Origin: a virus
Lineage: Duplodnaviria; Heunggongvirae; Uroviricota; Caudoviricetes
IMG/VR virus record: IMGVR_UViG_2617271087_000004
DNA: 64,000 nucleotides
Strand: one strand, 5' to 3'
The position numbers and the translations under genes were made by a program. Of this stretch, positions 1,627 to 63,704 are shown in pieces. Each line of letters starts with the position of its first letter. The stretch's first letter is position 1. Under the pieces are notes generated by a model. The model was not told the DNA's origin. It saw only the letters and a list, made by a program, of their open reading frames with translations, and searched no databases.

Positions 1627-2093
1627 GCCCTTACGATGTAATTAAATGCAACGTTGCGAGGGCGAGTTTCTGTACCTACATTTCCACTAATTTCACCATA
1701 ACGTTTAACACTACGAGAGCTAATAGCTCGTAGTGAGGAAGGCACCTTATGACCGGGTTCGTCCGTTTTAACTATTCCCCCGTCACCGTATGTAGCTAGT
1801 ATTCCTGGATTTACGCCTTCCCGTGCACTTCCTGCGGCGAGTCCGTCCCCTGTCCATAATTCCATATAGTGTGCATGGTCCAAAATTGTGTGTGGCTGCC
1901 AATTAAGCAAAGCGCGGCCAGCATCCACCCCGCGCCCATCATCCCAACCGCGAATAAATTCTCCCCGTAAATCCGGTAATTTATTGGTGGGGTAGGCTTT
2001 TGCCAGTTTGGGATACATTTCAGAAGAAAATGCTGCTCCGTTACATTTCAGCCACCCCGTTGGCGGTGTTTCTAAGGGCCACGGAACGGGCAC
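1620..2093 (-). CDS. tail fibre C-terminal variable cassette (alternative)
   Basis: Conserved boxes PVPWP..TPPTGWLKCNGAAFS and ETRPRNVAFNYIVRAA; different central segment. Confidence 0.75.
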   Translation of the reverse strand: MPVPWPLETPPTGWLKCNGAAFSSEMYPKLAKAYPTNKLPDLRGEFIRGWDDGRGVDAGRALLNWQPHTILDHAHYMELWTGDGLAAGSAREGVNPGILATYGDGGIVKTDEPGHKVPSSLRAISSRSVKRYGEISGNVGTETRPRNVAFNYIVRAA

Positions 2094-2114
2094 GCCAACG
2101 GGCAGCGCCGAGCC

Positions 2115-2140
2115 TTCCCCTAAACCAACGTTTTAGTCTT
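2115..2140 (-). other. inversion crossover site C (adjacent to invertase gene)
   Basis: TTCCCCTAAACC-AA-CGTTTTAGTCTT; third copy of the crossover motif, inverted relative to site A. Confidence 0.65.
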
Positions 2141-2194
2141 AATCCCTACCTATACCAACGATGTATTTTTAACTAAACAAAGAGGTTGTTTTTC

Positions 2195-2767
2195 ATGCAA
2201 ATTGGCTACATTCGTGTGTCAACAAATGACCAAAACACAGATTTACAAAGAAATGCACTGAACTGCGCAGGATGTGAACTGATTTTTGAAGATAAAATAA
2301 GCGGAACAAAGTCAGCCAGACCAGGCTTGAAAAAGCTGCTCAGAACGTTATCAGAAGGAGATACGCTGGTTGTCTGGAAGCTGGATAGGCTTGGCAGAAG
2401 TATGAAACACCTTATCACGCTTATAGAGGAGTTGCGGGAAAAAGGTGTTAATTTCCGTAGTCTGACAGACAGTATTGACACATCAACACCCATGGGGCGT
2501 TTCTTTTTTCACGTCATGGGGGCTTTAGCAGAAATGGAACGTGAATTAATTGTTGAGAGAACACTGGCCGGACTGGCAGCTGCACGCGAACAGGGACGCA
2601 TTGGCGGACGTCGCCCGAAGTTGACAAAAGAACAACATGAGCAAATAGCGAGGTTGATCGAAAATGGCTACAGCAGGAAACAGTTGGCAATTATTTACGA
2701 TATCGGTGTATCGACGATTTATCGTTATCATCCTGTAGAGAAGCGCCAAACTCAATCTGAGCTGTAA
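2195..2767 (+). CDS. cin: serine DNA invertase, Cin/Min/Pin/Gin/Hin family
   Basis: MQIGYIRVSTNDQNTDLQ...VVWKLDRLGRSMKHL...GRFFFHVMGALAEMERELI..C-terminal HTH; catalytic Ser in YIRVST; RBS AGAGG 9 nt upstream of the ATG at 2195 (ORF track starts at TTG 2186). Confidence 0.9.
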   Translation: MQIGYIRVSTNDQNTDLQRNALNCAGCELIFEDKISGTKSARPGLKKLLRTLSEGDTLVVWKLDRLGRSMKHLITLIEELREKGVNFRSLTDSIDTSTPMGRFFFHVMGALAEMERELIVERTLAGLAAAREQGRIGGRRPKLTKEQHEQIARLIENGYSRKQLAIIYDIGVSTIYRYHPVEKRQTQSEL

Positions 2768-3202
2768 TTCTAATGCCGCGTCGGTGTAATTTATCTTGAT
2801 AGAATAGGTACATTTATCGCGCGGCACATCAATTCGATGTATCTAGCGCCTGCTGACCGCTAATGAAAACTGTCCTCGAAATGTTGTCCCTAGCCCGAGA
2901 CTAGGGTATCACCTCTGGAAAGCATACGCAGAACCTTTTTTAACCCAGGGTGCCCAGCCTTTTTGCTGCTCGCCTTATTCGCAAAAATTAGCTCACATCC
3001 TGCGCTTTCAAGTGCTTTTCACTGCATAGCTGTGTTTTGTTCATTTGTCTATATGCGTACATAGCCTATTAGCATATTTTCTGCCCACTATCGTTATTTA
3101 TTGCAAGCTAAAGGTTTTAATTAACAAAACCAGTGTGTGTGGAAATCACAAAGTGCATACCGTTCTCAGATGTTGTTCAACTTACTGTTGTATAGGTAAA
3201 AA

Positions 3203-4900: not shown

Positions 4901-6820
4901 ATGGAACAGTTCAATATCAATAAAGGGGTGACGATCAAGCCTGGGCTTGACGTGCTTCCCCCGCCAGTGACTGATGATGAATATCGCGCATTAATGGCCG
5001 GTGAGGACCGCTATCTGATGACGGAATCCAACACCCTGGAGGAAATCGAGGCTACGTTCTTCTATGACACGCCGATCCACTGGTGTGCTACGGATTTACT
5101 GGAGGCGATTAGTTCTACTCGTTTGCAGTTACACCGGACCATGCAGGCATTTGTCCGGGCATTGAACCAGAAGCTGAATGGTACCGGAATCTCTGCGGGG
5201 AGTGATAAAACGGGGGATGTGGCCCAGAGCGGCGCGCGCGCGATCGGCGGCGCTGAAATTGGCCGGGCACGTAACGTTAACGGGCTGCCGGTCTTGCCAG
5301 CCATTATTCCGCTCAGTGATGGTCAGACTATCAGCATTCTGTTTCATAGCCCGACAGCGGAAAACCGGATCACCAATAGCGATACGCTGGTTGCTTTCCA
5401 GTTCTTACTGAATAAAAAAGACGTTACTCACACCGTTGCTCCGATGAGTGGACGTGATATGACGCTGGCGCAGGTCACCATGAAACTTGCCAACCTTGCA
5501 GAGAAAAACTCGGCAAAATTCCAGCGTGCGCAGAAGAAGAAAAAAGCCCTTGTTGATGAAATAACCCAACTACAGGCTGACAGTGACCAGAAAGAGGATG
5601 CCATGAGCGACCTCGCGGATCAGGTGGCAGCGGTAGAAGGGCAGAAGGCAGATCTGGAGCAGAAAATTAACGCTGTTGCATCGGAAGCGGATTCTCTTTA
5701 TGAAGAGAATGAGCGTTTGCAGACGGAGATTGATCAGCTCAATCGCACTGGTGGGCGCGATACCATTGCTCCAGCGGGGATGACTGGTGGGCACTCTCGC
5801 GCGCTGACGGATCGCCTTGCCAGTATCAAAAATCGTATGCATATGGACGGGGAAGTGACGCTCAGTAATGGTGCATCAATGAAGCAATTCATTGAGGACG
5901 GCGAAGGGTATATCCAGTTAACCGATTCGGATGGCAGCGTGTACATGATCAAGGCTAAATCCATACAGGGTGTGGACATGGCAGATGCGATCGGCAAGCT
6001 GTTTAAAGCCTACAAAGCGGGTAATGTATCGGAATATCTGGTCCAACCAGAAGAACATAAACCGGAAAACGTCGAACCTGAACCAGCGGAGGATACCGGT
6101 AGCTCTTCGCCTGAACCAGAAGTCTCTGTAGGTGCATATCGATATGCCTTGCAAATGCGTCCGGCGGCCCCTGGCGCAATACCTGAAGGTAACAAAGCAA
6201 TTCTGCCGCGCCCTGATGAAGGTGACCCGTATTATGAATATGCACGCTACGGCATTGCTACTTACGATACCCCGCTTTCTGATCAGCAAATGAGTGAGTA
6301 CGACCTGAAGTTATTGCCTCGCGAGGATTCTTTCGACTTCCTGGCGAAGACACTTACTAATGGTCCGTTTGGCAAATATGCACAAAAAGCTCTGGATCTG
6401 GCCACCAGCTCACCAGACGAGTTCCGCGTAATGCTGAAAACTCAGTTTCAAAAAACTTTCCCCAATATTGCGTTTCCGGGGGGCGCTGGCACCGAGAAAA
6501 TGGTGCAGAGCATGATCAATGCATTGCAGGCCGAAGTCGGTGAGATTACTCAGCCAGAACCTGCCCCGGCACAGCCTGATGAAACGGTTAGCGAAGCAGA
6601 TGCAGAGGCTAATAAAGCCATTGAATATCTCAATAACGTGATGGATATGCAAAGCACTGACATGGCGGAGATCCGTAACGCCCGGGGTAATGTCCGGGAA
6701 GCGATTGCAGCCCTTCAGGCTGCCGGGCGTTTTGAGGAAAACGAAGAGCTGGTTAATGGCGCTGCTCGCCACCTGGCTGATCTGCTGGTAGCAATCCAGA
6801 AAGCGGGGGTAGCGGTATGA
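4901..6820 (+). CDS. darA: DarA-like capsid-internal antirestriction protein
   Basis: 639 aa (the length I recall for P1 DarA), coiled-coil central region, operon context. Confidence 0.6.
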   Translation: MEQFNINKGVTIKPGLDVLPPPVTDDEYRALMAGEDRYLMTESNTLEEIEATFFYDTPIHWCATDLLEAISSTRLQLHRTMQAFVRALNQKLNGTGISAGSDKTGDVAQSGARAIGGAEIGRARNVNGLPVLPAIIPLSDGQTISILFHSPTAENRITNSDTLVAFQFLLNKKDVTHTVAPMSGRDMTLAQVTMKLANLAEKNSAKFQRAQKKKKALVDEITQLQADSDQKEDAMSDLADQVAAVEGQKADLEQKINAVASEADSLYEENERLQTEIDQLNRTGGRDTIAPAGMTGGHSRALTDRLASIKNRMHMDGEVTLSNGASMKQFIEDGEGYIQLTDSDGSVYMIKAKSIQGVDMADAIGKLFKAYKAGNVSEYLVQPEEHKPENVEPEPAEDTGSSSPEPEVSVGAYRYALQMRPAAPGAIPEGNKAILPRPDEGDPYYEYARYGIATYDTPLSDQQMSEYDLKLLPREDSFDFLAKTLTNGPFGKYAQKALDLATSSPDEFRVMLKTQFQKTFPNIAFPGGAGTEKMVQSMINALQAEVGEITQPEPAPAQPDETVSEADAEANKAIEYLNNVMDMQSTDMAEIRNARGNVREAIAALQAAGRFEENEELVNGAARHLADLLVAIQKAGVAV

Positions 6821-7182
6821 CACTATCAGCTATTGAGTTAATGGATCTCAGCGATAAGTTGGATGCTCTGATGTCCAAAGCGGCTACCGCGAGTGGCATG
6901 GAGTTGCTGGATATCAGCGATGAAATTGACCAGATCATGCAACAGATGGGGTACGGTGTGTCCGGCGGCAGTAGTGGCGAGGAAAAACAACCTTCGGTAC
7001 ATGATGGTGTGCCAAAACTGGTTGCTGATTTCCTGGCTGATAAATTCGTCGATCAGAGCACCGATGCATTTATCGGTACCTTGCAGGATTTGAGTCAATA
7101 TGTTGGCACATACATCGACCTGGACCAGGTTAAACAGCACACGGCGGCATGGATAGCCGCCAACATTAAAGAGGCAGCATAA
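6817..7182 (+). CDS. ddrA: DdrA-like protein
   Basis: 121 aa acidic protein downstream of darA; assigned by position. Confidence 0.45.
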   Translation: MTLSAIELMDLSDKLDALMSKAATASGMELLDISDEIDQIMQQMGYGVSGGSSGEEKQPSVHDGVPKLVADFLADKFVDQSTDAFIGTLQDLSQYVGTYIDLDQVKQHTAAWIAANIKEAA

Positions 7183-10182: not shown

Positions 10183-10480
10183 AATCGCAGCGCCATTAGG
10201 TGGAGATGCCATTATCGAATTTGATGATAATGAAGAAGTTTCCGGGCGTTTAAGCATTATCTCCGGTGACATTACCGAGGACATGATCGCTGAAGCCATA
10301 GCTGGGGCAAATCCCAATAGCTATATGGGATTCGTTAACACCCTTGATGCTCCCGCAAGTGATGTTCTCCGAACGCTGCATCTTTACGCTGGCTGGTTTG
10401 TTGATTGGCCAGCAGTAGATGGTGGCGATGAGGACGACGACGATGATTTTGGTGATCATGTAGACCAGATCGTATATTGA
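10172..10480 (+). CDS. hxr: Hxr-like small acidic protein
   Basis: 102 aa with Asp-rich tail (DGGDEDDDDDFGD); last gene of the dar operon. Confidence 0.45.
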   Translation: MQIKIAAPLGGDAIIEFDDNEEVSGRLSIISGDITEDMIAEAIAGANPNSYMGFVNTLDAPASDVLRTLHLYAGWFVDWPAVDGGDEDDDDDFGDHVDQIVY

Positions 10481-10483
10481 AGA

Positions 10484-10509
10484 AATCCCGCCAATCGGCG
10501 GGATTTTTA
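10484..10509. terminator. intrinsic terminator between convergent hxr and pacB-paralog genes
   Basis: AATCCCGCC-AATC-GGCGGGATT hairpin followed by TTTT on + strand. Confidence 0.6.
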
Positions 10510-10511
10510 CC

Positions 10512-11606
10512 TCACGAGAAGCTTTTTTCTGATGTCAGCCAACAGTGCTCGTGCAAATCTCTTGGTGGTTTTTCGACAAATGCCTCTTCAGCCACATCCT
10601 GCCAGGGGATTTGTTTAGCCCATTCAGTTATAGCGTTATGGTTTGCCGAGAATAACGGTATTGTATAGGCCTTCAGCCAGTCTAATGTGCTGGAGTTGTG
10701 TTTTTGAGCGTGATGTTTCGCATGGTGTTTGGCGATCACGATCGTAGGCACTACCCATTTACTACCGTCAGTCATTGTGAAGTGCATATTACGGGGAACA
10801 GATGACTTTTCCATCAACTCCCGAATCCCGGGGAATTTCCCCAAGATCAATCGGCGATATTCATCGCTATTGCGCCCACCAAACTCTTTGGCTTTGAATT
10901 CAAGATATGCTTCAGAAACGAGAGGTGAATCCTCTGTGTTTAGAGTTATCGCCGTGAAAAAACCAGCAGGATTGTTTTTACTATGGGCCAACCGGTGATG
11001 CGAATCATAAAAGTACCCTTTCTCGCGTTCCGATGGTTTCGACAGCAACAGCAGGCGCGAGTCATAATTGGTTAAATTGCCAGTTATCACTGCATGAGCG
11101 CGATCGCTGATTTCCGCCGAGTTAATAACGATGAAAAGATCGTGCGGTCCAGTAAAACCAGCCAGAGACTCTTCGTTATTCAGACAATAGGTTATATAGA
11201 CGCATCCCCATGTTTCACTGATATGCACCAACCCTTTGTCAGGGTGTATTCTGAAATAATTGCCAAGAAAAGGGTGTTTTTGGGTAACTCGCTCCCAATA
11301 ACGGAACATATAGTCAATTATTGTTTTTCGACTATCGTTAATCGCAGGAGAAACAACCACTGTACGGGAACACGAATACAGTATTGTTTGCAGGATGCTA
11401 ATCACTGCCACAATAGAGGTTTCCCCAATACCATGTGGTGTGGTGGCAGTGACTTTGGCTCCGGTGTTCTTTATCGCGTTAATAATTTTTGCTTGATGAG
11501 GTGTTAACTCAATATCAAGCAACTCTTTTGCTGCCAGTTCCCAATTGTCTTTATACCGTTCTATCAGTGCTAACCAGGCAGATTCATTCTGTATACGATT
11601 AATCAC
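10512..11606 (-). CDS. terminase large-subunit (PacB) N-terminal ATPase-domain paralog, predicted ATPase-inactive
   Basis: Colinear similarity to PacB 30839-32323 (e.g. [23 protein letters not shown] vs [21 protein letters not shown]); Walker A Lys replaced (GIGETS vs GTGKS), Walker B DE replaced (IVINSAE vs IIDEASG); no nuclease domain. Confidence 0.6.
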   Translation of the reverse strand: MINRIQNESAWLALIERYKDNWELAAKELLDIELTPHQAKIINAIKNTGAKVTATTPHGIGETSIVAVISILQTILYSCSRTVVVSPAINDSRKTIIDYMFRYWERVTQKHPFLGNYFRIHPDKGLVHISETWGCVYITYCLNNEESLAGFTGPHDLFIVINSAEISDRAHAVITGNLTNYDSRLLLLSKPSEREKGYFYDSHHRLAHSKNNPAGFFTAITLNTEDSPLVSEAYLEFKAKEFGGRNSDEYRRLILGKFPGIRELMEKSSVPRNMHFTMTDGSKWVVPTIVIAKHHAKHHAQKHNSSTLDWLKAYTIPLFSANHNAITEWAKQIPWQDVAEEAFVEKPPRDLHEHCWLTSEKSFS

Positions 11607-12390
11607 TTTCCACCTCTTCCGTGGTGTTTTCTTGCAGTTCTGTTAATGCAGCACGACATAGGTTCCGGGCATTGGCTATAGCCACACTTTTGACTTCATC
11701 CGTCATCGTGCAGGTAATGTACTGATCGAGTTCTTCAGCGCGGATGATGCTTTTGCCAATCAGAAACTGTATTTGCCATAGCAGATCGGCATCCATAATC
11801 AGAATTTCTGCCGGGCCTTCAGGGCCAGCCGGGAAGGAAACATAAGACTGTTTGCCCAGGCCGACAACTCGACAACTTGCTTCAAGAATTGCGCGCTTGA
11901 GGTCTGACTTTATAACGGAAACAGGTTGATTTTCACCAGTGATTACGCCGTTGACATGGAAAGGCATGTAGCTTGAAATACGCTCCACTTTCCACACGCC
12001 AGCAAGCGATCCTTCATGCAGCACAATGGGGGTAACCGCGAGTTTCATCTCACCATATAGCTGCTGGCAGATAGCTGGATTGCTGAATACATCTAAAGGC
12101 TCACATTCAAACAGCGGCGCAATCTGCATGAGGTCCATCATGGTCATCCCTGGGGTACGAGCAGTAATGAATCTGTGCATACCAGTATCCATTGCGCTCC
12201 AGATTGCTACACCATGCTTTTTGCTCACTTCTTCAGTAAAGCCAAGGTGGCACATGATGGTTTTTTCGATAGCCAGATCAGAGATAGAAACCTTTTCGCC
12301 TGGCACTCCATCATTATTGATGGTCACTTCGACACTCTGGCCATTACGTAGGCGGTATTGAATGGTTTTAGTATTTTGTGCTGTCATAGT
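11599..12390 (-). CDS. hypothetical protein
   Basis: ORF with RBS GAGGAAAG before internal ATG (MTAQNTKTIQY); downstream of ssb. Confidence 0.45.
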   Translation of the reverse strand, partial: TMTAQNTKTIQYRLRNGQSVEVTINNDGVPGEKVSISDLAIEKTIMCHLGFTEEVSKKHGVAIWSAMDTGMHRFITARTPGMTMMDLMQIAPLFECEPLDVFSNPAICQQLYGEMKLAVTPIVLHEGSLAGVWKVERISSYMPFHVNGVITGENQPVSVIKSDLKRAILEASCRVVGLGKQSYVSFPAGPEGPAEILIMDADLLWQIQFLIGKSIIRAEELDQYITCTMTDEVKSVAIANARNLCRAALTELQENTTEEVESD

Positions 12391-12584
12391 CTTTCCTCTG
12401 CTTAAAACCTGATGTATTGCGCCTTCAGGTGGGTCAGGAATGTTTTCCCACCAGCGAACGCAATATCTCGGGGTGTTCTTTTCGTGAAAAGCGCGTGCCA
12501 TTGCCAACTTTGGCGTTTGTTTGCGAGTTCGTGCTTTTGTCGGCGTCTGGACCACCGCTTTTCTTTCAGTCGTTTTTTACACAT

Positions 12585-13073
12585 TCAAAACGGAATATCG
12601 TCGTCAAAGTCCATTGGAGGTTCGTTATTGGCGTTGCTCTGAGGTTTACCGCCACCACTGTATTGCTGGTGGTTTTGAGGTTGGTTTGATTGCCCCCAGC
12701 CATTTGAGGACTGTGAATCGTCACGGCGAGCGCCGATCATTTGCATGGTGCCGCCCTGGCTGACGATAATTTCCGTCGTGTAACGTTCTACACCGGCGTC
12801 ATCTGTCCACTTACGGGTTTTAAGTTTCCCTTCGATGTAGACCTGAGAACCTTTTCGTAAATACTCACTCGCAATTTCAGCAAGTTTTCCGAACAAAACG
12901 ACTTTATGCCATTCTGTTTGCTCTTTCTGTTGGCCCGTTTGCTTGTCGCGCCATGATTCATTCGTTGCGATGCTGAGTCTTCCGACCGCGCCGCCATTTG
13001 GTATATACCTGATCTCCGGGTCTTGCCCCAGGGTACCAATCAGGATGACTTTGTTTACACCGCGTTGTGCCAC
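12585..13073 (-). CDS. ssb: single-stranded DNA-binding protein
   Basis: [23 protein letters not shown]...[12 protein letters not shown]...DDDIPF; canonical OB-fold SSB with acidic C-terminal tail. Confidence 0.95.
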
Positions 13074-13092: not shown

Positions 13093-13109
13093 AAAATAAT
13101 TAGAGCAAT
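13093..13109 (-). promoter_or_regulatory. C1 repressor operator-like 17-mer
   Basis: AAAATAATTAGAGCAAT = reverse complement of ATTGCTCTAATTATTTT (15/17 to P1 consensus ATTGCTCTAATAAATTT); 20 bp upstream of ssb start. Confidence 0.6.
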
Positions 13110-29387: not shown

Positions 29388-29404
29388 ATTGCTCTAATAA
29401 ATTA
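29388..29404 (+). promoter_or_regulatory. C1 operator-like 17-mer (immC region)
   Basis: ATTGCTCTAATAAATTA (16/17); divergent from site at 29305-29321. Confidence 0.65.
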
Positions 29405-30838: not shown

Positions 30839-32323
30839 TTATTCATTAAGCCATGCCAGAGCTTCATCAACCTGCGCTTCGTCTTCGACGCTAAGCACTT
30901 CATCCTGGGGAACATAGTTCGCCAACATAGCGAAACAATATGTATCCCAATGGTCCGGTGAGTGCAGGTTGAGTTTTTTCTTCATATCTTCCTTTGACAT
31001 CACCTTCCATTGACCTGCGGAATTTATCCCTACCGGTATCTTTGATGCTTCCTCTATAGTCGCAGCCCCCTTATCAAGCCTCATACGCCCTGATTTTACA
31101 GCTTCTGCCGCCTGAATATTCGCGAAAGCGCGCATATCGAAATAAAGGCTTTTATCTTCACGGCTGTGCATCTTTTTACCCCAGCGGATACGCTGGACGG
31201 TAATACCATAGCGTTCGTACATTAGATCAGCCGTCGATTTCCCCAAGCCATCGCCATCAATAGCTATGGTTATGTTCGGGAACCGTTCTGGGTTACATTC
31301 TGCGAAAATCTTGGCGGCTAACTGCGTTTCTGTAACGTCTGTGTATTCCAGCATACGATAGTTGATTACACGGCGTTTATTTCGCTGGCCGGACACCATC
31401 ATGATATTAATAACGGACTTATCTCGTCCTGTGCCACCAGCAACGTCAACACATGCAACCCAGCCCCATCCTTTGGCAATCTTGACCTTTCGCCGCGTCG
31501 CCCGCTCAACCTCATCACGACCAAGAAGAAAGCCATCTTGAGATTTGGGAAATTCACCACGTACTTTGATCATGTACATGGGGTTATCACGACCGCCATA
31601 CTCCGCAAGTTTTGCTCGTATAAATTTTGCATCTACAAGCGGAGATTCTTCACTATTCAGTATTATCGCAGTAAACAATCCATCAGGATTTCCCGGGCGA
31701 ATAGCTAGTCTGTGGTGTGAATCGTAGAAATAGCCTGAAGGTCGCGTAGGCTGGGAAAGAAGCAGAATACGGTTATCCTTACCGGTCAGCGCACCTGTTA
31801 TCACACTGAATGCTTTATCACTCACACCCGACGCTTCGTCGATGATATACAAGAGATGATCGGCGTGTTCACCAGCCAACGCCTCCTCATTCCCGGGGCG
31901 ACAGGACTTTATCAATATTGTCCAAACACCCTTGCCAGTCACCTCAAAAAAAGACGTTTCTGTAAGAATGAAATACTTCGACAACCACGGGAATCTGCTA
32001 ACAGCAGTAGCCCAATTGCTCTTTATGTATTTGAAAATACCATCAAGGACTTGCTGTCTTTTGTTAGCGACCAGAATGACGCGAGCGCCGGGGAAAAACA
32101 TGATGAAGAGTATTGCAATGATACTCGTCATATCCGATTTACCAGTACCATGGCCGGAGGTCACACTTGTCCAACTGCCGTCCTGCTGCGTGGACTCAAT
32201 GATCTCATCCTGCTGCCAGGTTGGTGTCTTCCCAAACAACACATCAGCGGCCGCAATCCAGTCATAACGATATAGCGCCACAAGCTCGCGCCAACGTGGG
32301 TCCGTTACGCAACTTCTGGCCAT
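30839..32323 (-). CDS. pacB: terminase large subunit PacB
   Basis: 494 aa; Walker A SGHGTGKS, Walker [12 protein letters not shown]-terminal nuclease region; overlaps pacA stop. Confidence 0.9.
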
Positions 32324-33516
32324 TAATCATCATCCCCGTACAGTTTGCGGGTAACTTCTTCGTCTTCCTCCTCGTCTTCGTCCAGATCCTGTTCAAGCCA
32401 TGCTTCGTTTGATATGCCTTCCGCATCGACATCACCATAACCACCTGTATCGACGATATCGGCAATTTCTTCTCTACGATGCTCAATCCACAATGCGGCA
32501 TCAGCGCGGCGGCTGGCGGCCCGTTCTCGCGCGATTTTATCCAGATCTTCAAGTGATGGAGCGCCAGATGCTGTTTGGTTTTCCTCATCATCGGTATTGG
32601 TCTTAGGAGCACGCAGATCGGCTTTGATTTGCTCCAGCATCAGGGGAGGCACTTTTCCTCCATGCGCCTCGATGAATTCAGCCGCTTCCAGCACTGACCA
32701 GTTATTTTCACGCTTTCGTTCGTATGCCAGCTTAACAATGCCAGCTTGCCCCATAGATAAAGCGTGCTTTTCCGCCTCCCGGCTTTCTTTTCGATAGTTA
32801 TTCCGGATGCTGTAAATGGTGTTGATCAGGCTGCTTATCTGCGCGGAACAGCTGTTTAGCATGCTCGCGATACGGTATTCAGGCGGAGTACCTTCATCAT
32901 CGTCTTTTTGCTGATCGCGCATTTCCTGCACTAGGCGAATACACGTATCCCTGGCGTTCTCCAGCATAAGGAGATGAGAAAGAGACTTTTCCAGAAGAGT
33001 GGTTTCCAGAACATCGGCCCCGGACCGACGCAACATAGCGCGCGCGGCCTTCCGCGCTTCAACGTTATCTATCAGGTAATCGCCAGCTTCGAATTCAAAG
33101 CGTTCACCATCATCATCCAGGGTGTCGCGTTCCAGGCGATCACGTAAGGTACGGTGGGCGCGGGTGATCACGTCATGATCATCAGAACGATCATTTATGC
33201 GCTTATTTTGGCGCTTAGCGTTCTCGACTGCGGCACTGACAACAGCATTAACTCTTTGTTTTTCAGCCATTTCAGCCACAATGTGATCACCTGCACGTTG
33301 ATCATTAGCGTGATCAATGATCATGCTTTTTAGAGGCTTCCTGACTGGCTTATTTGGCTTGCGGCTGTCCGCTGTCCTGGTGTCTTCTTTGAAGGCACGG
33401 AGATAACGACGTGCGGTATTAGGGTTAAGATTAAACTCGGCGGCATACTGTGCGATGGTGTAACCACCATCTCGCGCCAGGCGAGCAAAATTCTTCTTGT
33501 GATCGTCCCAGGTCAC
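32323..33516 (-). CDS. pacA: terminase small subunit / pac recognition protein PacA
   Basis: 397 aa; gene contains the GATC-hexamer pac site. Confidence 0.85.
33160..33325. other. pac: pac packaging site (two clusters of TGATCA/G hexamers inside pacA)
   Basis: Cluster 1 TGATCAcgtcaTGATCAtcagaacGATCA (33165-33193); cluster 2 with four TGATCA at 33284-33323; seven hexamers in total, as described for P1 pac. Confidence 0.8.
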
Positions 33517-60400: not shown

Positions 60401-60428
60401 ATTACACTAATAAATTTATTAGAGCAAT
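60401..60428. promoter_or_regulatory. overlapping inverted pair of C1 operator-like sites
   Basis: ATTACACTAATAAATTT (60401-60417, 15/17) overlapping AAATTTATTAGAGCAAT (60412-60428, perfect reverse complement of consensus). Confidence 0.7.
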
Positions 60429-63339: not shown

Positions 63340-63688
63340 GTTGTAACCCTTGAATATCAACCACAGAAAGCTCGTTTTTGTAGAAAAAGGCCAGGTTGAG
63401 GCACCCCCTAGTTTGAGCGTATGAGCTGGGACCAATTTCGTTCTTCCAGACAAATGGCTTCAAATCCGTACGGCGAAGCATAAAAACGCGATTTGTTCCG
63501 CTCTGATTCCCAATGAGGCAAAAGCCTTCTTTCACCTTGATAGCCTGCAAGTTGTCGAGTTCACCGCTGGTTACACGGCTATCGAACTCTTTGCGGCTTA
63601 TTAGCTCCATCTGCATCTGACGACTCCAAACAAATACCCATTGAAGGGCGATGGCTGAATGGTACCGAAAACACGACATAAAAAACAA
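63332..63688 (-). CDS. hypothetical ORF upstream of rdgC-like gene
   Basis: 118-aa ORF; start abuts operator-like site; may be noncoding leader. Confidence 0.25.
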
Positions 63689-63704
63689 TATTTATTAGAG
63701 CAAT
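63688..63704 (-). promoter_or_regulatory. C1 operator-like 17-mer upstream of rdgC-dmt operon
   Basis: ATATTTATTAGAGCAAT (16/17). Confidence 0.6.

Follow-up and report, generated by a model that had tools for sequence, protein, structure and literature searches.

The stretch of DNA analyzed here, 64,000 nucleotides (nt) from a virus of the class Caudoviricetes (IMG/VR record IMGVR_UViG_2617271087_000004; hereafter the window), belongs to a P1-like phage-plasmid: its segment 10000-13200 matches P1-like records at 97-99% identity, and pacA, pacB, ddrB, hxr, ssb, and lyz are among the other P1-type genes that it carries. On the minus strand, between hxr and isaA, lies an open reading frame (ORF) of 364 codons, ORF364, whose product is predicted to be a dead paralog of the terminase PacB that has been kept as a pseudo-enzyme. 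The gene and its parts are as follows:

10512-11606, minus strand: ORF364, whole gene, 364 amino acids (aa), GTG start, TGA stop; predicted PacB-derived pseudo-ATPase followed by a C-terminal domain.
10824-11606, minus strand: ATPase domain of the terminase-large-subunit type, residues 1-261, predicted to be catalytically disabled (BLASTP to PacB, phrog_2 profile, and neighbor-joining tree).
11415-11438, minus strand: Walker A remnant PHGIGETS, residues 57-64, Lys replaced by Glu.
11112-11138, minus strand: Walker B remnant LFIVINSAE, residues 157-165, Asp-Glu replaced by Asn-Ser.
10821-11018, minus strand: C-terminal block of the ATPase domain, residues 197-262 (GYFYDSHH...GKFPGI), the part best conserved with PacB.
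10515-10823, minus strand: C-terminal domain, residues 262-364, a widespread uncharacterized phage domain that occupies the place of the PacB nuclease domain.

An earlier inspection of the letters alone (the sequence-only reading) had proposed that a 364-aa product encoded at 10512-11606 is colinear with the ATPase half of PacB. The ORF is indeed real, lies on the minus strand and starts with GTG, and pairwise comparison of its product with the window's own PacB (30839-32323, minus strand) yielded 95 identities over 269 positions (35%; BLASTP, E=5e-52), residues 11-272 of ORF364 aligning with residues 11-274 of PacB, including the common block of 11 residues that had been pointed out. The substitutions claimed for the Walker motifs were recovered as well: PHGIGETS stands in ORF364 where PacB has GHGTGKSD, and LFIVINSAE where PacB has LYIIDEASG. 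Likewise, no alignment to the nuclease half of PacB extends beyond residue 272 of ORF364, in agreement with the proposed absence of a nuclease domain. Hence, the suggestion of a catalytically dead terminase paralog fits what is found, i.e., a homolog of the PacB ATPase domain devoid of the Walker residues and of the nuclease domain. Since it has neither the lysine and the acidic pair required for ATP hydrolysis nor a nuclease, ORF364 cannot be a terminase. Only one of five features of large terminases, the homologous N-terminal ATPase domain, is present; Walker A GK[ST], Walker B DE, the RNase H-like nuclease, and a location beside the small subunit gene are all absent, pacA and pacB being found at 30839-33516 and ORF364 following ssb and isaA outside this packaging module.

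Profile searches agree with this ancestry. ORF364 matches the phrog_2 “terminase large subunit” profile (E=3.6e-9) and, over residues 1-364 and profile positions 1-359, phrog_5902 (E=1.6e-186); PacB also scores on phrog_5902 (E=3.1e-139), which implies that this PHROG mixes both kinds of proteins. ORF364 has no match in Pfam and no sequence match to any chain of the PDB, no terminase structure came up when the family profile was run against the sequences of the PDB, and no PADLOC profile matched ORF364, IsaA, or PacB at E<=0.1. The 90% cluster of ORF364 (P0001) contains 851 member sequences. Two records, MH422554.1 (16006-17100) and MH445380.1, give the dead paralog the misleading label “terminase large subunit,” while other records call it hypothetical.

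The sequence-only reading overlooked that the last ~100 aa of ORF364 form a distinct domain, that isaA is a conserved partner of the gene, and that the gene sits in an already described hot spot for cargo. As judged from sequence searches, the C-terminal domain is an independent and widespread phage domain. When 1.84 billion cluster representatives were searched with a profile built from residues 262-364, 259 of them matched at E<=1e-3; most are proteins of 95-125 aa, which bear the signature MPDGSxWxVP...IAxxRAxxYA...TxPLF...DWAxNNMxWxDV...GW. Ten members of the domain, free-standing and fused, were scanned and revealed no Pfam family for it; within PHROGs, it occurs only inside phrog_5902 and phrog_17928, both of which are devoid of functional annotation; and neither a functional annotation in any library searched nor a fold match in the PDB was obtained. 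The AlphaFold2 model of the domain, computed from an alignment of 84 sequences, is confident (predicted local distance difference test score, pLDDT, of 91.9) and shows a beta hairpin, several helices, a further short strand, and a helix at the end, and a Foldseek search of BFVD with this model found only uncharacterized phage proteins. The idea that the domain is a diverged piece of the PacB nuclease was rejected on account of the free-standing domain family and of the different predicted fold.

In two proteins (P0039 and P0106), the C-terminal domain is fused to DUF1351. These proteins and phrog_17928 share with ORF364 the C-terminal domain of ~100 aa, but their N-terminal part is a DUF1351 coiled-coil rather than a terminase-like domain, and they are encoded beside erf and yqaJ. 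Another protein, P0015, has the reverse order, with the domain lying N-terminal to another dead PacB-like domain (P-loop GSGTGTTT). The gene that encodes it (locus L091, 8001-8741, GCA_024867085.4) ends abruptly and the likeness to PacB stops downstream; an AbiH gene and a gene for a Ref-like RecA-dependent nuclease are found nearby. Free-standing proteins of the family are very acidic (median isoelectric point, pI, of 4.6; net charge of about -9), whereas the C-terminal domain of ORF364 is neutral and histidine-rich.

Full-length relatives with 49-53% identity to ORF364 form a group found in D6-like contigs of ~85 kb, whose PacB is 56% identical to that of the window. One full-length relative (locus L031) retains 37% identity, P0004 is a further representative, and the contig search for P0002 returned no record. 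In six lineages, the P-loops differ from one another and none bears the canonical Gly-Lys (GIGETS, GIGRPQ, GIGQKT, GIGHKS, GVGTKT, and GTGTTT), and the acidic positions of Walker B are occupied by a different pair in each dead lineage (NS, NA, VD, TE, MD, and LN). By comparison, GK[ST] and DE are kept in all 27 distinct motif patterns of the true terminases from the same loci (38 unique sequences), in which the P-loop reads GHG[TI]GK[ST] or another GK[ST] and Walker B reads DE[AS]S. In a neighbor-joining tree of the ATPase domain, built without bootstrap, the dead proteins form a single long-branched clade that is sister to the PacBs of the P1/D6 type. Across five dead lineages, 11-14% of the positions of the core (residues 34-196) are invariant, as opposed to 39% in residues 197-262 and 28% in the C-terminal domain; the catalytic core of PacBs is 39-57% invariant, and 27% of the positions of residues 197-262 are common to the dead lineages and the PacBs. 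By analogy with the structures of other terminases, we label this block the putative lid. Because the core is little conserved while the block shared with PacB is kept, the proteins show the pattern expected of an old duplicate in which catalysis would have been lost once, the active site would then have drifted, and a non-catalytic surface would have been retained.

A degenerating remnant was one of the possibilities raised by the sequence-only reading, and the evidence speaks against it. For five full-length copies with DNA differences of up to 6%, the ratio of nonsynonymous to synonymous substitution rates (dN/dS) is 0.09-0.45 over the whole gene, which denotes purifying selection, the ATPase-like part by itself giving 0.12-0.55 and the C-terminal domain (the last 103 codons) 0.04-0.16. 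Nor do most relatives carry disabling mutations: the frame is uninterrupted in all 29 IMG/VR copies, and 119 of the 120 PLSDB plasmid records that match the query interval of 1120 bp do so over at least 80% of its length. Furthermore, relatives persist at 37-53% protein identity in other lineages of phage-plasmids. Two damaged copies were encountered. In the Escherichia albertii plasmid pEA13_2 (locus L005, ~1680-3000), ISEc60, an insertion sequence of the IS4 family, splits the ORF at codons ~256-259, close to where the ATPase-like part gives way to the C-terminal domain; the two blast matches share 12 bases, which may represent the target duplication. In phage vB_EcoM-813R1 (ON470617.2; locus L003, 2013-3106), a deletion of one base near the 3′ end shifts the last few codons; this record annotates a shorter coding sequence, and the deletion could be a sequencing error.

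The hosts of the PLSDB plasmids that carry ORF364 belong to Escherichia (including E. albertii and E. fergusonii), Salmonella, Klebsiella, and Shigella. Given that the ssb-isaA segment is matched in 501 PLSDB plasmid records and ORF364 in 120, roughly one quarter of such elements carry the gene, which makes it accessory cargo of the P1-like plasmids. ORF364 is also found in 100 of 5426 complete E. coli genomes, and isaA and ORF364 occur together in 34 of 131 records of the D6 type.

The sequence-only reading had mentioned an IS1 in this neighborhood of P1; P1 does carry IS1 here, but ORF364 is not a gene that IS1 interrupts in P1. When the ssb-to-hxr interval was compared, the match to P1 DNA ended exactly at the hxr stop (window position 10478) and resumed exactly at the isaA stop (window position 11598), leaving 10479-11598 devoid of any P1 match, and P1 was found to hold isaB and IS1 between hxr and isaA. 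The candidate explanation that ORF364 is the intact form of the P1 IsaB cut by IS1 was rejected, as the best BLASTP value for IsaB is E=0.84 and there is no P1 DNA match. P1 IsaB resembles ORF364 in occupying the same slot between hxr and isaA in the same orientation, but it has no sequence similarity to ORF364 or to PacB, and the P1 slot also contains IS1. Taken together, the unmatched interval and the unrelated IsaB imply that ORF364 is an alternative filling of a cargo slot and not an IS1-disrupted gene. Indeed, isaA-IS1-isaB has been listed as a variable region of P1-like elements, termed RD-2 (PMC6906374) or region 2 (PMC9603915); neither study discusses ORF364.

In D6-like contigs, a 47%-identical homolog of isaA lies directly 5′ of the ORF364 homolog, but the operon there is another one, with the order cre-like recombinase gene, small genes, dUTPase gene, isaA, and ORF364. 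The divergence between P1-type and D6-type elements is similar for isaA (47%) and ORF364 (49-53%), which fits co-inheritance. An obligatory pair was considered and rejected, isaA being often alone, as in ~3/4 of the D6-type plasmids, and this makes the position after isaA a cargo slot in both the P1-like and the D6-like lineages. Two elements that bear isaA without ORF364 have other contents in this region: in an Enterobacter P1/D6-like element (locus L098, 3711-6747), the operon that ends in isaA includes genes for an N6/N4 DNA methylase and a Tad2-like (anti-Thoeris-like) protein, and in a Raoultella element a complete arsenic-resistance (ars) operon follows isaA.

The surroundings of ORF364 in the window bear on when it is expressed, and comprise the following features:

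11613-11616, minus strand: Shine-Dalgarno sequence GAGG, 6 nt 5′ of the ORF364 GTG, as read from the sequence.
11599-12387, minus strand: isaA homolog, 262 aa, conserved upstream partner gene.
12585-13073, minus strand: ssb, coding for the phage single-stranded DNA-binding protein (SSB), first gene of the presumed operon.
13093-13109, minus strand: operator of the C1 repressor 5′ of ssb, counterpart of P1 Op21/Ossb (ATTGCTCTAATTATTTT, 2 mismatches to the consensus).
10483-10508, either strand: bidirectional terminator-like hairpin AAATCCCGCC-AATC-GGCGGGATTT with a T run, located where hxr (stop at 10480) and ORF364 (stop at 10512) converge.

As had been proposed, the gene lies downstream of ssb and of an adjacent gene, described at the time as coding for 263 aa and here recognized as the homolog of P1 isaA. 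Both the gene order and the overlap with isaA would also fit the earlier suggestion of a single operon of ssb, isaA, and ORF364. On the minus strand, the C1 operator is followed by ssb, a gap of 197 bp, isaA, ORF364, and the hairpin common with the convergent hxr, and the end of isaA and the GTG start of ORF364 have 8 nt in common, an overlap that implies translational coupling. The hairpin, with a fold energy of about -20 kcal/mol on either strand, lies within the segment missing from P1. The annotation of P1 places Ossb and the C1-controlled ssb promoters at the position homologous to 13093-13109, and a scan of the window for the C1 operator consensus ATTGCTCTAATAAATTT, in which 3 mismatches at most were allowed, yielded 16 sites where chance predicts 0.5. 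Because of the C1 operator 5′ of ssb, the isaA overlap and the closing terminator, ORF364 is predicted to be made early, with SSB, after derepression; early and C1-repressed expression is thus plausible.

The genes that surround the C-terminal domain elsewhere are diverse. The DUF1351 fusion lies directly 5′ of erf and of the YqaJ exonuclease gene (locus L092), and in a phage contig that codes for DsbA-, dNMP-kinase-, and dCMP-deaminase-like proteins (locus L093) the domain is encoded between a DNA polymerase and RecA/UvsX; in L091, it is near the Ref-like nuclease gene. According to a review of the recombinases of Firmicutes phages, DUF1351 genes occupy the slot 5′ of erf/sak4-ssb modules, as Gam-like genes do (PMC8093625). 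A free-standing copy of 98 aa overlaps the stop of dnaB/ban in the Salmonella P1-like plasmid NZ_CP146848.1 (locus L101, 3002-3298), and another is found in Cronobacter phage JK004. In L031, the dead-terminase fusion sits at the same position, after a DnaB-like gene, and this shared location of free copy and fusion hints at how the fusion may have originated. Other contexts consist of rows of small uncharacterized genes, or of nucleotide-metabolism, NAD-salvage, and Tad2-like genes. In a broader sample of 62 non-redundant IMG/VR loci (117 neighbors of at least 115 aa), the commonest identifiable neighbors are DnaB helicase (4), integrase (4), Ead/Ea22 (4), DUF551 (4), lambda P (3), and N6/N4 methylase (3); SbcC-like ATPases and RecT (1) are rarer. 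Overall, as these neighborhoods indicate, phages typically encode the domain in their early accessory region, close to the replication genes, and a specific tie to replication or recombination proteins may be suggested.

How does ORF364 compare with known systems? With P1 PacB, it shares a homologous N-terminal ATPase domain, including the Q motif, the strand order, LLLSxP, and the FYDSHH...GG..Y..G.FP block. It differs from PacB by the absence of the Walker A lysine, the Walker B Asp-Glu and the nuclease, by its unrelated C-terminal domain, and by its location after ssb and isaA instead of beside pacA, being optional and not core. T4 vs.8 and the Klebsiella-phage proteins Ksap1 and Ksap2 are also similar to ORF364 in that they resemble only the ATPase half of a terminase and are encoded apart from the packaging genes (bioRxiv 10.64898/2026.04.30.721860). 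However, by its published description, vs.8 keeps Walker A and B and is kin to T4-type terminases, whereas ORF364 has lost both motifs; unlike vs.8, Ksap1, and Ksap2, ORF364 combines PacB ancestry with an added domain. ORF364 works like neither a terminase nor any described defense or anti-defense protein.

We favor, with a probability of roughly one half, the reading that ORF364 is a functional pseudo-enzyme, i.e., a non-essential adaptor or decoy that would act by binding only. The ATPase half of a PacB-type terminase would have been duplicated in an ancestor of the P1/D6-like phage-plasmids, and the copy would have lost its ATP-binding and hydrolysis residues as well as its nuclease half and would carry instead the domain of ~100 aa that is often free-standing in phages. 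Selection would be relaxed on the catalytic core and strong on the block shared with PacB and on the C-terminal domain. The protein would be made early after derepression, together with SSB, a timing that follows from the predicted operon. Without ATP hydrolysis or DNA cutting, it must act by binding: its PacB-like end may engage a normal binder of PacB, such as PacA, the PacB ring, the portal, or a host terminase sensor, while its other end would be a domain that recurs near phage genes for replication and recombination. It is accessory, given that P1 is viable in its absence and that it fills a cargo slot in only some of the elements.

Several observations weigh against this account. The proposed partners of ORF364 are guesses, and the label of lid given to residues 197-262 draws on general knowledge of other terminases. 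Some members of the D6 type have a lysine one position late (GIGHKS, GIGQKT, and GVGTKT) together with an acidic residue at the position of the Walker B Glu, which makes nucleotide binding possible in these lineages. Co-transcription with ssb is a deduction from gene order, 197 bp separating ssb from isaA; a simple scan of the minus strand for promoters returned none, although it missed the known ssb promoters as well. The occurrence of isaA without ORF364 in P1, in the Enterobacter and Raoultella elements and in most D6-type plasmids indicates that the pair is not obligatory. Finally, the replication link of the C-terminal domain is modest, as DnaB, lambda P, and RecT account for 4, 3, and 1 of the 117 neighbors, most of which are without a Pfam match.

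The alternatives differ in what ORF364 would bind, if anything. That its C-terminal domain works on SSB, on a DnaB-type helicase or on a recombinase, the dead ATPase being a scaffold and packaging playing no part, is conceivable but doubtful. This view draws on the proximity of ssb in the window, of DnaB-like helicase genes in L031 and L101, of erf and yqaJ in L092, of DNA polymerase and RecA/UvsX genes in L093, and of the Ref-like nuclease gene in L091, on the frequency of DnaB and lambda P among the identifiable neighbors in the 62 loci, and on the Gam-like slot 5′ of recombinase-ssb modules taken by DUF1351, its fusion partner (PMC8093625). Yet early regions of phages are rich in replication genes anyway, the neighbor counts are raw numbers, and the other contexts contain small uncharacterized, nucleotide-metabolism, or anti-defense genes; moreover, a role confined to replication or recombination leaves unexplained why the block shared with PacB is the best conserved part of the N-terminal half. 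Another possible role is counter-defense: by mimicking the terminase ATPase domain, the target of the bacterial immune sensors Avs1-3 and Upx, a protein made early and incapable of holding ATP could occupy or mis-assemble such a sensor before PacB accumulates. EcAvs2 and Upx are activated by the terminase ATPase domain alone, EcAvs2 contacts the ATP bound by the terminase, and vs.8, a free-standing terminase-ATPase-like protein with intact Walker motifs, fits the EcAvs2 pocket (bioRxiv 10.64898/2026.04.30.721860). The patchy distribution of the gene, its place in a cargo hot spot that adjoins the anti-restriction dar/ddr operon, and the Tad2-like and DNA methylase genes in the isaA operon of related elements point in the same direction. 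The free-standing members of the domain family are small and very acidic (median pI 4.6), as is typical of protein inhibitors, but the domain of ORF364 is neutral. We nevertheless consider such a decoy rather improbable, since binding of a sensor by ORF364 would be conjecture, vs.8 and the Ksap proteins have been reported as activators of Avs2 and not as inhibitors (bioRxiv 10.64898/2026.04.30.721860), and a mimic would be detrimental to the phage if it set off the sensor.

A role in packaging itself appears unlikely. In ring ATPase packaging motors, one inactive subunit can stall the motor, so that a dead subunit joining PacA or the PacB ring might delay the phage's own pac cutting or block a competing P1-like phage; retention of the PacB fold and of its most conserved non-catalytic block would suit this role, as would expression of ORF364 at an early stage, when the P1 pacase is also made, cutting coming later. 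But the identity of ORF364 to the PacB of its own element is only 35%, it is no closer to this cognate protein than to foreign PacBs, and ~19 kb separate it from pacAB. Moreover, a gene under C1 repression would offer a lysogen no protection, packaging by P1 is normal in the absence of ORF364, and the C-terminal domain is left unexplained. Residual activity as an NTPase with unusual motifs is very improbable for the window protein. Some terminases use deviant P-loops, and several relatives of the D6 type combine a downstream lysine with an acidic Walker B residue; in the window protein, however, Glu takes the place of the lysine and Walker B has no acidic residue, conservation of the core falls far short of that in PacBs, and the motif positions differ in every lineage, which denotes a lack of constraint. 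We give next to no credence to a functionless remnant of a duplicated terminase gene. The missing catalytic motifs and nuclease half, the copy cut by ISEc60, the record with a 1-nt frameshift near the 3′ end, and the dispensability of the gene in P1 would be compatible with decay, but dN/dS is well below 1, every IMG/VR copy is intact, and the architecture is retained in relatives as distant as 37% identity, the C-terminal domain being highly conserved.

Should the binding-only pseudo-enzyme prove to be a purpose-built terminase mimic, it might serve either as a sponge or decoy for sensors of the Avs1-3 or Upx type, or as an adaptor that ties replication or recombination to the packaging machinery. 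In that event, which we put forward tentatively, the C-terminal part would define a new and widespread family of phage early proteins with a common target in the host or in the phage. Few phage proteins are as conserved as large terminases, which are also a main target of bacterial pattern-recognition immunity, and a terminase ATPase domain that is long dead and still selected would imply that the fold has a second use without catalysis. About one quarter of the P1-like phage-plasmids, elements that also spread resistance genes, bear ORF364. Because the C-terminal domain is present in hundreds of phage lineages and has neither a Pfam family among the members scanned, a PDB fold match, nor an annotation in the libraries searched, identification of a single partner of ORF364 could annotate a large family.

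A few further observations concern the rest of the locus. The gap between ssb and isaA (12388-12584, 197 bp) constitutes a second insertion slot, several near-identical plasmids matching the ssb-isaA segment in two pieces with a gene for a DUF2829-domain protein in between. A GTG further 5′ would lengthen the frame of isaA (11599-12555) to 318 aa, and the annotated length is 320 aa in P1 and 264 aa in RefSeq plasmids; the short start at 12387 is favored because D6-type homologs begin there (MENTK/MESTK aligned with MTAQNTK). The C1 operator sites found elsewhere in the window, for instance at 29388-29404, 44215-44231, 60412-60428, and 63688-63704, reflect the usual scattered C1 regulon of P1-like elements. 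In the E. albertii plasmid p2RM9974 (locus L004), a gene for an RNA-guided endonuclease of the TnpB family (6708-7120) lies just past lyz, and the glycerol dehydrogenase gene gldA replaces ddrB on the other side of hxr.

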